Sequence record: OM953433
Reading direction: 5' to 3' (one strand)
From: Shigella phage Henu11
DNA length: 64,000 bases
This document shows, piece by piece, positions 57,423 to 58,351 of the stretch; position 1 is the first letter of the stretch; each line of letters begins with the position of its first letter. A program made the translations under genes and the position numbers. A model generated the notes under the pieces. That model saw only the letters and a program-made list of their open reading frames with translations. It searched no databases and was not told the origin of the DNA.

Positions 57423-57437
57423 ATTTCAATAAAGTTG

Positions 57438-57466
57438 TTGACATTGAGATGTGACTACTTTATAGT
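57438..57466 (+). promoter_or_regulatory. sigma70-like promoter internal to tRNA cluster
   Basis: TTGACA, 17 bp, TATAGT. Confidence 0.5.
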
Positions 57467-57698
57467 AACCTTAGTTTTCGTTAGCGTAGCGTCTATTTTG
57501 CAAACTTAAAATAAATGCAAACGATAATGTTTTTCTGGCAGTAGCTTAATAGGCTAAACACCAGTGAGGTCTTCCAAACCCTCATCAAAGAATTTGGCGT
57601 ACTAGCCCACGGTATGATTAATAAAGTGGGCAACATTCTAAAGGGTATCCCTTATGGGGCTTGGCTTAAATGCAATGAGTACCCTTTAAAATGTTAAT

Positions 57699-57775
57699 GC
57701 ACCCTTAGTTCAACTGGACAGAGCAAATGACTTCTAATCATTGAGTTACAGGTTCGAATCCTGTAGGGTGTGCCA
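57699..57775 (+). tRNA. tRNA-Arg(TCT)
   Basis: anticodon stem AATGA/TCATT, loop ctTCTaa; T-loop TTCGAAT. Confidence 0.7.
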
Positions 57776-57916
57776 AATAGTTAGCAGATTACTTAGACGA
57801 CCTTAACGGGTCTCCTGTAAGGAGGTGGTCTGTATCTCATGTTTTCCAGAACATGTAAATAATCTGAGAAGAAGCTTGACAGTGTTGAGATAACAGGGTA
57901 AGCTTCGAATTATAGT

Positions 57917-57999
57917 ATGGGACGATGTTAAGACACTAAGGCATGTGCGTAAGCCTCCAAAACTTACTCAAAGGGGTTCGATTCCTCCGTCCCATGCCA
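57917..57999 (+). tRNA. tRNA-like gene, non-canonical (anticodon unresolved, possibly Trp CCA)
   Basis: acceptor ATGGGAC/GTCCCAT and T-loop TTCGATT clear; 48-nt body does not fold into standard D and anticodon arms. Confidence 0.4.
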
Positions 58000-58011
58000 A
58001 AGTCTTATTAG

Positions 58012-58099
58012 GGGTAGGTAGCGGCTAATGGCAGCCAAACAGTCTTGAAAACTGTTGCCACTGTAGAGATACGGTGAGGGTTCGACTCCTTTACTTACC
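58012..58099 (+). tRNA. tRNA-Ser(TGA)
   Basis: class II; anticodon stem ACAGT/ACTGT, loop ctTGAaa; long variable arm; T-loop TTCGACT; CCA not encoded. Confidence 0.65.
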
Positions 58100-58351
58100 G
58101 CCTAATAAGATTTAAAGCCGCGCTCCGTTCGAATGTTGCGTTAGGTTTCCCTCCGTGTATTGGCGTACACGGCACTGATGAAGCACCTAGTAGGTGTCAC
58201 GGAGAAGAGATAGTATCAAGCTCTCCAAAGGTTCTAGTCACCGGATTAAACAAGACTATGCAAAGACTGTTTAGGTCTTTTTAGAGAACTTCTGAGGCAA
58301 ACTACACCATTGTTGCTTTGGGGTCTTGGAAGTTCTCTACAAAGATTTAAT

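Follow-up and report, generated by a model that had tools for sequence, protein, structure and literature searches.

An RNA gene in the tRNA cluster of Shigella phage Henu11 resembles bacterial tmRNA without its tRNA-like end

tmRNA (SsrA) is regarded as a housekeeping RNA of bacteria and organelles. In the tRNA cluster of phage T4, stable non-tRNA RNAs, species 1 and 2 (rnaC/rnaD), are matured alongside the tRNAs; they are not known to resemble tmRNA. Two-piece tmRNAs (RF01849, RF01850, and RF04321) occur in alpha- and betaproteobacteria, cyanobacteria, and many phage contigs and have a separate coding RNA that carries the resume signal, the tag, and the pseudoknots; this coding piece begins with the 5' strand of the acceptor stem, and the acceptor piece, with T-arm and CCA, lies just upstream. 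The only phage ssrA genes reported by an exhaustive survey in 2014 were those of Bacillus phage G and of a group of mycobacteriophages (PMC4131195). The gene of mycobacteriophage DS6A encodes little beyond a tRNA-like domain, and a molecule of this type is inhibitory to tmRNA, perhaps through titration of SmpB; along with the tag-less tmRNAs of mitochondria, it is a precedent for truncated tmRNA derivatives that persist in phages or organelles and may modulate trans-translation (PMC4131195). Here, we describe a phage RNA gene that, judged from its sequence, looks like a bacterial tmRNA without its tRNA-like end. We found no description of this element in the literature on phage tmRNA-like, message-only, or mimic RNAs, for which our coverage of subscription papers was incomplete.

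The DNA analyzed, referred to as the window, is a 64,000-nt stretch of Shigella phage Henu11 (OM953433), a Felix O1-like phage with 100% identity to Shigella phage Henu12. The tRNAs on either side of the two gaps considered here were called by both ARAGORN and Rfam, which find no tRNA in the gaps themselves:

57347-57422, tRNA-Ile
57423-57698, spacer 1, 276 nt
57699-57775, tRNA-Arg
58013-58102, tRNA-Ser
58103-58351, spacer 2, 249 nt
58352-58428, tRNA-Leu

The preliminary description had proposed two tRNA-free spacers of about 275 and 250 nt and had seen no ORF with a ribosome binding site in the first, and both statements agree with our results: the gaps between the called tRNAs measure 276 and 249 nt, neither ARAGORN nor RF00005 detects a cloverleaf with a T-arm in 57423-57698 or 58103-58351, and the ORFs in the spacers are only 26 to 53 aa long, all of them without a Shine-Dalgarno (SD) sequence. 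The hairpins that it had described, as GC hairpins in the first spacer and including AGAGAACTTC/GAAGTTCTCT in the second, are present, but they are not especially rich in GC. Neither spacer reaches the gathering score of any Rfam family, with no such match to Bacterial Y RNA-like (YrlA) or other small-RNA families. The region is prone to recombination, with many homing-endonuclease ORFs and degenerate tRNA-like pieces; odd tRNA-like pieces of the cluster lie at 56398-56447 and 57918-57998.

Spacer 1 encodes a homolog of the tmRNA body of about 160 nt, or about 225 nt if a 3' hairpin is included. From 5' to 3', it consists of a D-loop-like remnant, a resume signal (ATAAAT, then GCA), a tag reading frame, a helix whose loop holds the stop codon, a pair of H-type pseudoknots, and finally a long hairpin:

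57438..57466, + strand, sigma-70-type promoter: TTGACA at 57438-57443, 17 nt, TATAGT at 57461-57466; 11 of 12 positions match
57470..57516, + strand, 5' region: D-loop-like segment, small helix, and A-rich resume context, from alignments
57511-16, + strand, A-rich resume context ATAAAT
57517..57552, + strand, tag reading frame: GCA AAC GAT AAT GTT TTT CTG GCA GTA GCT TAA TAG, read as ANDNVFLAVA and two stops
57535..57564, + strand, helix-5-like hairpin, from covariation: outer stem 57535-38/57561-64, inner stem TAGC 57542-45/GCTA 57553-56
57565..57597, + strand, pseudoknot A: stem 1 57565-69/57580-84; loop CCAA 57574-77 pairs with TTGG 57594-97
57598..57631, + strand, pseudoknot B: stem 1 57598-602/57612-16; stem 2 GCCCAC 57605-10/GTGGGC 57626-31
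57632..57698, + strand, 3' hairpin: 16-nt arms 57632-47/57680-95 and a 32-nt loop, 3 nt before tRNA-Arg (57699)

The TTGACA-17-TATAGT promoter had been noted before as canonical and as the beginning of the segment; its sequence stands, and its position is 15 nt inside the spacer. The only other 11/12 site in the 6-kb cluster, 55407-55436, lies ahead of the first tRNA, and the total of promoter-like sites in the cluster is not above that of shuffled sequences (8 found versus 13 expected). Transcription is predicted to start at about 57472-57475. Equivalent consensus promoters precede the element, equally far from it, in Klebsiella phage KP591P1, Escherichia coli phage Bas78, a Pantoea prophage, locus L128, and Erwinia phage M7, and intrinsic terminators follow the element in N4-like phages and the Pantoea prophage. 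Read in this way, the element is an independent gene with a putative promoter of its own in five lineages. In the window, its RNA would be transcribed from the sigma-70 promoter within the tRNA cluster, and its 3' end would be generated by RNase P cleavage at the 5' end of tRNA-Arg (57699). The spacer 1 RNA folds with a z score of -2.9, and 2 of 200 shuffled sequences fold equally well.

The element is a real structured RNA whose helices covary strongly. Among 56 distinct sequences, 22 base pairs are 95.3% paired, versus about 40% after sliding of the partners; compensatory changes are seen in 11 pairs (111 cells), and none of 500 shuffles reaches these values. The outer stem of the helix-5-like hairpin is 100% paired, with pair 114/137 being A-U in 28 sequences and G-C in 28; the minimum free energy fold agrees with this hairpin, and TAA (57547-49) lies in its loop. 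Stem 1 of pseudoknot A is 98% paired, and three of its pairs are altered on both sides, while the loop pairing is 91% paired and all four pairs are altered on both sides (CCGA/TCGG, CCAG/CTGG, and CCAA/TTGG). For pseudoknot A, N4-like variants have GTCGT/ACGAC. In pseudoknot B, which has a conserved linker (GATTAATAA), helix 5 of the covariation set is 94.5% paired with two compensatory pairs, and stem 2 occurs in at least seven sequence-pair versions, including GCGGGAG/CTCCCGC, GCCCTGA/TCAGGGC, TCCCCGT/ACGGGGA, and TCCCTGA/TCAGGGA. Compensatory changes are present in all four pseudoknot stems and, across phage families, maintain four helices. The small helix of the 5' region (57474-77/57502-05) is 93% paired and nearly invariant, and with this invariance an equivalent of the upstream PK1 could not be established. 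The 3' hairpin covaries in one relative, L121 (GGGTA/TACCC to GAGCA/TGCTC and ACATT/AATGT to ATATT/AATAT), many Felixounaviruses carry a different, shorter hairpin in its place, and lambdoid prophages have homologous long stems with other inserts 3' of the element. Its matches in Rfam are miRNA-type and at chance level.

To which known RNA is this structure related? The preliminary description had suggested scanning for tmRNA-like models. The window and 12 related loci were searched with Rfam, both at E-value thresholds and at the gathering score, and the scores for tmRNA families, 12 to 31 bits, lie below the gathering scores of 47 to 84; nevertheless, in all tested homologs the subthreshold matches fall on tmRNA families, on no other family, and exactly at the element. 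The two-piece models score best, with the best match of the homologs being to tmRNA_permuted (31 bits, E = 1.6e-4); the alignment to the beta_tmRNA model covers the tag and the next pseudoknot, and positions 84-140 of the tmRNA model (RF00023) align over the tag. Conversely, a covariance model of the element matches the mRNA-like region of genuine tmRNAs with 20 to 36 bits and, in E. coli K-12 ssrA, nt 78-200 with 21 bits (E = 0.17), so that the likeness to RF00023 is weak but reciprocal. A single 19-nt resume pattern retrieves from IMG/VR both the element family and ARAGORN-confirmed phage tmRNAs, and ARAGORN itself reports a "resume consensus" at the spacer 1 element. Further shared features are the resume context with GCA AAC GA., which matches the start of the E. 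coli tag (ANDENYALAA), a startless tag of 10 codons that ends in small hydrophobic residues, a stop codon in the loop of a helix 5 hairpin, H-type pseudoknots after the tag, and a D-loop-like 5' segment, where TTAGTTTTCG resembles, by eye only, the D-loop segment of the tmRNA tRNA-like domain (GGTTTCGAC) as marked by ARAGORN in the 5' tRNA domains of genuine phage tmRNAs. These comparisons show that the spacer 1 RNA descended from tmRNA, keeping the body and losing the tRNA-like domain.

The element also differs from tmRNA. Inspection, ARAGORN, and Rfam show that 57423-57698 lacks a T-arm, a CCA, and an acceptor stem with G3-U70, and the RNA would therefore not be chargeable. The element has only two clear pseudoknots and about 160 nt, versus about 360 nt in tmRNA, its tag ends in LAVA or LMAA rather than LAA, its carriers are phages, prophages, and plasmids, and it has a promoter of its own. 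It falls under the Rfam gathering scores and is not called as a tmRNA by ARAGORN at default settings, because the tRNA-like domain on which standard tools key is gone. Unlike the coding piece of two-piece tmRNAs, it has neither the acceptor 5' strand nor the acceptor piece just upstream, and it is the reverse of the DS6A and mitochondrial forms, in which the tRNA-like domain is retained and the message is gone. Like T4 species 1 and 2, it would be a stable non-tRNA RNA within a phage tRNA cluster; it differs from them in having its own promoter and in occurring also far from tRNA genes. Several candidates for the missing part were rejected. ARAGORN at the low stringency of -ps80 builds full tmRNAs only as chimeras with the 3' half of tRNA-Arg, and its "permuted" call in L121 combines a tRNA-like piece 570 nt upstream with part of tRNA-Lys; both were rejected as artifacts. 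Complementary flanking strands (a/a') in lambdoid and N4-like loci were examined as an acceptor-like closing helix and dismissed: in N4-like phages they fit local hairpins on either side better, their G-U shifts in position and often has the wrong orientation for alanine identity, and in five lineages the promoter stands in place of the upstream strand. The search for a known RNA family ended with the subthreshold tmRNA matches. Upstream of the tRNA cluster, window positions 1-55400 contain no tmRNA-like match, and no tRNA or tmRNA lies within several kilobases of the element in the Pantoea prophage or Bas78.

The tag varies in the manner of a coding sequence. Its frame has no in-frame start codon or SD sequence, and the frame upstream is not conserved, but all 20 distinct DNA versions have 10 codons, followed by TAA, TAG, or TGA. 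Third positions vary most, and 27% of the codon differences are synonymous, versus 2% and 13% in the other frames; this signal comes from only 20 distinct 33-nt sequences, with codons 7 to 10 also inside a helix. All four Ala and all four Val codons are in use, and substitutions are conservative (D/E/N, V/M/T/A, and F/Y/V/I). Changes within the subfamily Ounavirinae are mostly silent, the Felix O1 tag differs by GAT>GAC and TAA>TGA, and three of the five codon changes in Erwinia phage M7 are silent.

The element is distributed far beyond the Felix O1-like phages. It occurs in 610 phage records (Felixounavirus, Kolesnikvirus, Schitoviridae, Ackermannviridae, and siphoviruses), in 330 of 5,426 complete E. 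coli genomes (about 6%), where the copies lie in lambdoid prophages, with the antiterminator (Q-type) gene on one side and the holin gene on the other, and in 545 plasmids, 529 of them nonmobilizable, with hundreds of carriers among ~110-kb Klebsiella and E. coli plasmids. Only one match, the Pantoea prophage, was found in species-representative bacterial genomes, and the element is therefore essentially borne by mobile elements. Across 214 Felix-type records it is 95 to 99% identical, while the neighboring spacer sequence diverges to about 80 to 85%. Such spread across unrelated phages argues for selection, and the occurrence in many unrelated enterobacterial phages, prophages, and plasmids suggests phage interference with ribosome rescue.

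How might an RNA without a tRNA-like domain take part in ribosome rescue? Since the tag frame evolves like translated sequence, the RNA may act on stalled host ribosomes. The leading explanation as a whole, to which we give a little less than an even chance, is that this tmRNA-derived, message-only gene reprograms or competes with host trans-translation. The RNA would serve as an alternative trans-translation message on stalled host ribosomes, a phage-specified tag ending in LAVA or LMAA would be added instead of the host YALAA, and this tag would alter or escape the host's handling of rescued proteins, with host tmRNA-SmpB or another phage RNA providing the aminoacyl-acceptor function in trans. 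We know of no mechanism that loads an mRNA-like domain untethered from a charged tRNA-like domain. Tethering to host tmRNA was rejected for want of significant complementarity to E. coli ssrA; duplexes of the spacer 1 RNA or the spacer 2 core with ssrA, or with each other, are no better than those of shuffled sequences. SsrA has been reported as the main substrate of RtcB, and RNA repair ligation to a tRNA-like acceptor could be a joining route. The fullest version, a mobile message-only tmRNA in at least five unrelated enterobacterial phage lineages that is truly decoded on stalled host ribosomes, either by hijacking charged tmRNA-SmpB or by being joined or tethered to a tRNA-like acceptor, seems to us doubtful. 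If true, it would be a new mode of trans-translation in which the template is given in trans and rescued chains receive a tag chosen by the phage, and a new layer of phage takeover or counter-defense against nucleases that create nonstop mRNAs.

A possible alternative, though on the unlikely side, is that the RNA is not decoded but mimics the tmRNA body as a decoy or inhibitor, damping or diverting host trans-translation or tmRNA-sensing immunity during infection. It would sequester factors that recognize the tmRNA body, for which ribosomal protein S1, RNase R, SmpB (bound by way of the D-loop remnant), and defense proteins with SmpB-like domains are candidates. A decoy would need neither the constant 10-codon frame nor the synonymous-type variation nor the stop codon kept as TAA, TAG, or TGA, and SmpB makes its main contacts with a complete tRNA-like domain. 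The lack of acceptor stem, T-arm, and CCA, with only the D-loop-like segment retained at the 5' end, is nevertheless in its favor, as are the partial phage tmRNA of DS6A (PMC4131195) and the prediction of defense systems with SmpB-like domains (PMC11090510).

We consider it decidedly unlikely that spacer 1 is the coding piece of a complete two-piece (permuted) tmRNA whose acceptor piece lies elsewhere in the phage, for example, among the odd tRNA-like pieces of the cluster such as 56398-56447. Permuted tmRNAs are found on many IMG/VR phage contigs, and their model scores best in Rfam. A piece with a T-arm and an acceptor-like strand lies ~1 kb upstream of the element, its L121 version ending in GCCA followed directly by the complementary strand and a D-arm, and ~285 nt downstream of the element, the lambdoid, KP591P1, and Taipeivirus loci carry a tRNA-like element that ends in CCA and is not annotated. 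This tRNA-like downstream element is missing from the window, however, and stand-alone copies of the spacer 1 element have no tRNA-like genes nearby. Moreover, the predicted transcript starts ~5 to 10 nt before the D-loop-like segment and therefore leaves no acceptor 5' strand for pairing, and no candidate piece with G3-U70 or with complementarity to the 5' end of the element was seen by eye.

An inert relic, either a pseudogene in decay that stems from an ancestral phage tmRNA or a mere spacing or folding cassette of the tRNA precursor, is very improbable. A domain essential to tmRNA function has been lost, and the location among homing-endonuclease ORFs and degenerate tRNA-like pieces would suit decay, but decay is at odds with the identity kept across the Felix-type records, the four helices maintained by compensatory changes across phage families, the promoter in five lineages, and the horizontal spread into unrelated virulent and temperate phages. 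Scarcely credible is a conventional small-peptide gene, either from the invariant ATG at 57515 within ATAAATGCA, whose frame of 7 to 9 aa (MQTIMFFWQ in the window) has no SD sequence and shows radical changes with 2% of codon differences synonymous, or from the 27-aa ORF 57614-57697, which, though listed among the spacer ORFs, extends over pseudoknot B and the 3' hairpin, a part for which most relatives have other sequence. Conventional ORFs in the spacers were dismissed for their frame, length, and substitution pattern.

The message-only reading concerns a tmRNA derivative that has gone unannotated in classic model and therapy phages, including Felix O1 relatives and N4-like and Vi1-like phages. 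A functional RNA would mean that phages tamper with the rescue of ribosomes and the tagging of proteins, a pathway that becomes critical when defense nucleases or toxins cleave mRNAs and tRNAs. The element makes it testable whether an mRNA-like domain can function apart from a tRNA-like domain, and it provides annotators of phage genomes with a new RNA family and covariance model.

Spacer 2 forms a structured part of the tRNA precursor that is distinct from spacer 1 and specific to Felixounavirus. There is no relation between the two spacers: spacer 1 is found across enterobacterial phages, and spacer 2 occurs in Felix O1-like records only (253). A relationship of spacer 2 to spacer 1 or to tmRNA was rejected, as there is no covariance model match and the distributions are not shared. 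Its parts are as follows:

58103..58184, + strand, variable 5' part, from hairpin and inverted-repeat search, alignment, and folding
58185..58283, + strand, core of ~95 nt, nearly invariant in 25 Felixounavirus sequences
58271..58350, + strand, long hairpin of ~26 bp including AGAGAACTTC/GAAGTTCTCT, 1 nt before tRNA-Leu (58352)

The preliminary description had called both spacers candidate noncoding RNA genes or processing cassettes and had proposed a conservation analysis. For spacer 1, the first term fits a covarying, promoter-driven homolog of the tmRNA body conserved across enterobacterial phages; for spacer 2, which has an invariant core of ~95 nt, the proposal is plausible from conservation and hairpins only. 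No promoter is predicted inside spacer 2, and its most likely role is that of a processing or stability cassette or of a second small stable RNA. Its folding z score is -2.0, with 7 of 200 shuffled sequences folding equally well. Almost no variation is seen in alignment columns 101-200, against differences of 15 to 25% in the flanks, and at its end the core has a hairpin that resembles a weak terminator, AAAGAC(C)..GGTCTTTTT. AGAGAACTTC (58283-58292) and GAAGTTCTCT (58329-58338) form the center of an inverted repeat with 22-nt arms (58271-58292/58329-58350), and the long hairpin covaries in part, with one pair altered on both sides, several G-U/A-U switches, and a loop of variable length. The variable 5' part includes a trailer arm (58101-13) that is complementary to the leader of tRNA-Ser. 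It also has two hairpins, one at about 58115-58148 with a sequence that varies by subgroup and the other formed by CCGTGTA..TACACGG.

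Within the cluster of 26 tRNAs at 55464-60863, all on the + strand (ARAGORN; Rfam gives 24 tRNA matches, including one weak extra tRNA-like match at 56348-56422), the two tRNA-free spacers of the preliminary description are real: neither ARAGORN nor Rfam places a tRNA at 57423-57698 (spacer 1, between tRNA-Ile and tRNA-Arg) or 58103-58351 (spacer 2, between tRNA-Ser and tRNA-Leu). The TTGACA-17-TATAGT promoter it proposed is present at 57438-57466, with 11 of 12 positions matched; only two sites of this quality occur in the cluster, the second (55407-55436) lying ahead of the first tRNA. 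Both spacers fold better than shuffles (z = -2.9 for spacer 1 and -2.0 for spacer 2), and their small ORFs lack a ribosome-binding site, as had been stated for spacer 1. Over the surrounding 1.15 kb, identity is 100% with Shigella phage Henu12 and 80-92% with several hundred Felix O1-like phages (Ounavirinae).

Comparative analysis indicates that spacer 1 encodes a tmRNA (SsrA, the ribosome-rescue RNA) that lacks the tRNA-like domain, an apparently new mobile element of enterobacterial phages. A BLAST search with spacer 1 alone shows that 610 phage records share its central 100-125 nt at 72-82% identity, in each case within unannotated DNA. Beyond Felix O1-like phages, the carriers include Erwinia Kolesnikvirus phages, N4-like Schitoviridae (FSL SP-076, UTK0001, and St11Ph5), Ackermannviridae (Marshall, Maynard, SeSz-1, and Klebsiella phages May and UPM2146), and several siphoviruses (KP591P1 and Bas78). 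The element also occurs in 330 of 5426 complete E. coli genomes, where chromosomal copies sit in lambdoid prophages between antiterminator (Q-type) and holin genes, and among one-per-species bacterial genomes in a Pantoea prophage only. Of 545 plasmids carrying it, 529 are non-mobilizable, with lengths of about 105-115 kb; these are probably phage-plasmids, since a DNA ligase gene and tRNA genes adjoin the element in one comparison locus (L009).

At the resume signal, ATAAAT followed by GCAAACGA is invariant in alignments of 10 and then 56 distinct copies, and exactly ten codons and a stop come after it. The window frame reads ANDNVFLAVA, closed by two stops, compared to ANDENYALAA in E. coli tmRNA; other copies read ANDDVVLMAA, ANEEMYLAVA, ANDNTFLAVA, and ANDAQFLAVA. 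A single 19-nt resume pattern retrieves from IMG/VR both the element family and dozens of genuine ARAGORN-recognized tmRNAs, many of them permuted, indicating that the resume context is authentic. The tag frame evolves in the manner of coding sequence: among 20 DNA variants its length is constant, amino acid replacements are conservative, all four GCN codons occur at codon 10 and all four GTN codons at codon 5, and the stop is kept as TAA, TAG, or TGA. Synonymous changes make up 27% of codon differences in this frame, compared with 2% and 13% in the alternative frames. Within Ounavirinae, Felix O1 carries GAT>GAC and TAA>TGA relative to the window, and three of the five codon changes in Erwinia phage M7 are silent. 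No in-frame start codon or Shine-Dalgarno sequence was found for the tag frame, and the frame upstream of it is not conserved.

Downstream of the tag, the predicted structure is tmRNA-like and covarying, with these features:

57535-38 / 57561-64, + strand, stop-codon hairpin with the stop in its loop
57565-69 / 57580-84, + strand, pseudoknot A, with loop bases 57574-77 pairing with 57594-97
57598-602 / 57612-16 and 57605-10 / 57626-31, + strand, pseudoknot B

Across 56 element sequences, 95.3% of paired cells are complementary versus about 40% with slid partners, and compensatory changes occur in 11 of 22 pairs, a level reached by 0 of 500 shuffles; stem 2 of pseudoknot B exists in at least seven unrelated sequence versions. 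A repeat with 16-nt arms ends the spacer (57632-57647 / 57680-57695), and the resulting 16-bp stem of the 3' hairpin shows four compensatory pairs in the relative L121. This stem is homologous to long stems after the element in lambdoid prophages, which enclose other inserts, some with a T-arm; many Felixounaviruses have a shorter, different hairpin in its place. Thus, the proposal of an ncRNA gene is borne out for spacer 1 by a conserved, covarying RNA.

Two further unannotated modules lie 3' of the element in lambdoid prophages, KP591P1-like siphoviruses, and Taipeivirus (L003:6140-6330, L004:1640-1860, L008:1640-1815, L001:2640-2795, and 14 other loci). The first folds into a long stem that covaries (CAACAGGTAAGAGCATT...AGTGCTCTTTCCGTTGTGG) and encloses variable inserts, some bearing a canonical T-arm. 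The second, absent from the window, is tRNA-shaped, about 285 nt downstream of the element (TGTGGTG-AA-GCGCAGGCTGATGCGC...GCCGGAGATCAGCGCCGGC-CACCACA), with a 9-nt T-loop and, in lambdoid prophage loci L003 and L008, a GCCA end.

A tmRNA covariance scan, suggested earlier as a check, gave matches below threshold only: all element homologs match tmRNA families, and no others, at the element position (best Rfam score, 31 bits; E = 1.6e-4), and the beta_tmRNA alignment spans the tag and continues into pseudoknot A. Conversely, a covariance model built from 34 element copies (R1) detects a single copy in the window (137 bits) and recovers held-out relatives (Felix O1, 133 bits; Erwinia M7, 103; a plasmid copy, 75; N4-like variants, 61-71). 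On genuine tmRNAs, R1 scores 20-36 bits over the message region, partly by construction, as most of these loci were chosen via the shared resume pattern; E. coli K-12 ssrA, chosen independently of it, is matched at nt 78-200 (21 bits, E = 0.17).

The element's descent from the tmRNA family is clear, yet it lacks what defines a member, since no tRNA-like domain was found: spacer 1 shows no acceptor stem, T-arm, or CCA, ARAGORN at default settings makes no tmRNA call on it, and window positions 1-55400 hold no tmRNA-like match. Low-stringency ARAGORN calls were rejected, as they merely stitch the tag to parts of neighboring tRNAs. A consensus sigma-70 promoter is present in five lineages (Henu12 and Felix O1; Erwinia M7; KP591P1; Bas78 and the Pantoea prophage; comparison locus L128), with a predicted start only about 5-10 nt before (G)GTTTTCG, a segment that looks like the D-loop stretch (GGTTTCGAC) in the 5' tRNA domain of genuine phage tmRNAs; hence, the RNA is predicted to start inside the former tRNA-like domain. 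In Felix O1 (L131:1660-1760), about 90 nt are inserted between promoter and element, so the promoter-to-RNA distance varies within the genus. An intrinsic terminator closes the unit in N4-like phages and the Pantoea prophage; in the window, the 3' hairpin stops 3 nt before tRNA-Arg, so an RNase P cut at 57699 would set a 3' end.

Within 56348-56617 lies a degenerate, apparently circularly permuted tRNA-like piece, with a T-arm (56398-56414), an acceptor-like hairpin with a short closing loop, and a D-arm-like GTGTAATGGAAGCAC (56433-56447). A hairpin with 21-nt arms follows (56469-56489 / 56593-56613; 103 nt enclosed), directly before tRNA-Lys. In L121 the piece reads acceptor 3' strand, GCCA, and then the complementary 5' strand.

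The identity of the element is well supported, unlike its mechanism. We tentatively favor, at somewhat below even chances, that the tag is decoded, given its coding-like evolution; decoding would require entry via a charged tRNA-like partner supplied in trans. The main rival, a nondecoded decoy for tmRNA-binding factors, seems rather unlikely; its precedent is the opposite truncation, a phage DS6A gene that keeps the tRNA-like domain alone and is thought to titrate SmpB (PMC4131195). SmpB-like domains are predicted in defense systems, and the RNA ligase RtcB is reported to act mainly on SsrA (PMC11090510). Complementarity between the element and host ssrA does not exceed that of shuffles. A complete two-piece tmRNA whose acceptor piece escaped detection is improbable: no tRNA or tmRNA lies within kilobases of the element in Bas78 and the Pantoea prophage.

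No Rfam 15 family covers the element, its sites are blank in phage and E. coli annotations, and a full-text search found no description within reach of the searchable papers, although an earlier one elsewhere is possible. A 2014 census of tmRNA genes covering 543 RefSeq bacterial virus genomes listed mycobacteriophages and Bacillus phage G as the sole viral carriers of ssrA (PMC4131195). Phage-borne tmRNAs seem far commoner than that, since many IMG/VR viral contigs (loci L010-L129) hold genuine ARAGORN-called tmRNA genes, mostly permuted (two-piece), with tags such as ANDEKFALAA and ANDNIANDNYSEYRLAA. In UPM2146, unannotated DNA about 600 nt upstream of the phage tRNA genes (L001:4117-4330) matches the Salmonella sRNA family STnc100 (RF02076) at 47 bits, exactly the gathering score.

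Spacer 2 is confined to Felix O1-type genomes (253 records), and its candidacy as an ncRNA gene or processing cassette is plausible, given a conserved core and hairpins. The core (58185-58283, about 95 nt) is almost invariant in 25 sequences, placing its structure beyond the reach of covariation, and has a weak terminator-like hairpin at its end; its flanks diverge by 15-25%, and the 5' hairpin keeps its form while its sequence differs by subgroup. The hairpin AGAGAACTTC/GAAGTTCTCT noted before is the core of an inverted repeat with 22-nt arms (58271-58292 / 58329-58350), within a stem of about 26 bp (58271-58350) adjoining tRNA-Leu that shows one compensatory pair and several G-U/A-U switches. 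Spacer 2 has no predicted internal promoter, and neither Rfam nor R1 matches it; a 26-aa GTG ORF (58194-58274) was rejected, having no Shine-Dalgarno sequence and a C terminus disrupted by indels in relatives. In our reading, spacer 2 forms a structured piece of the tRNA precursor and serves as a processing/stability cassette or as a second small stable RNA.

A third tRNA-free gap (57776-58012, notably 57918-57998), absent from the preliminary description, has promoter-like sites at 57885-57913 and a TTGACA at about 57876. Within it is an unusual tRNA-like sequence, GGGACGA...GGGGTTCGATTCCTCCGTCCCATGCCA, whose anticodon loop is 9 nt long (CCTCCAAAA) and whose anticodon stem covaries (GTAAG/CTTAC versus AACGG/CCGTT in Felix O1); ARAGORN and Rfam make no call on it, and some relatives annotate "tRNA-OTHER/Pseudo" among features under the match around this region. 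Complementary 13-nt arms flank tRNA-Ser (58000-58012 / 58101-58113; AAGTCTTATTAGG / CCTAATAAGATTT), so that leader and trailer lengthen its acceptor stem. Several tRNA 5' ends in the cluster are immediately preceded by long stems, which suggests a shared processing architecture. Protein ORFs lie between tRNAs at 56868-57353, 59023-59235, and 59280-59507. One of them, an HNH-type ORF of 161 aa that is rich in Cys, has a stop codon that runs into the start of tRNA-Ile (57347). HNH homing endonuclease genes vary in position in the tRNA clusters of relatives; Felix O1 has one no more than about 70 nt from the tRNA-like sequence that replaces tRNA-Arg downstream of the element's 3' hairpin.
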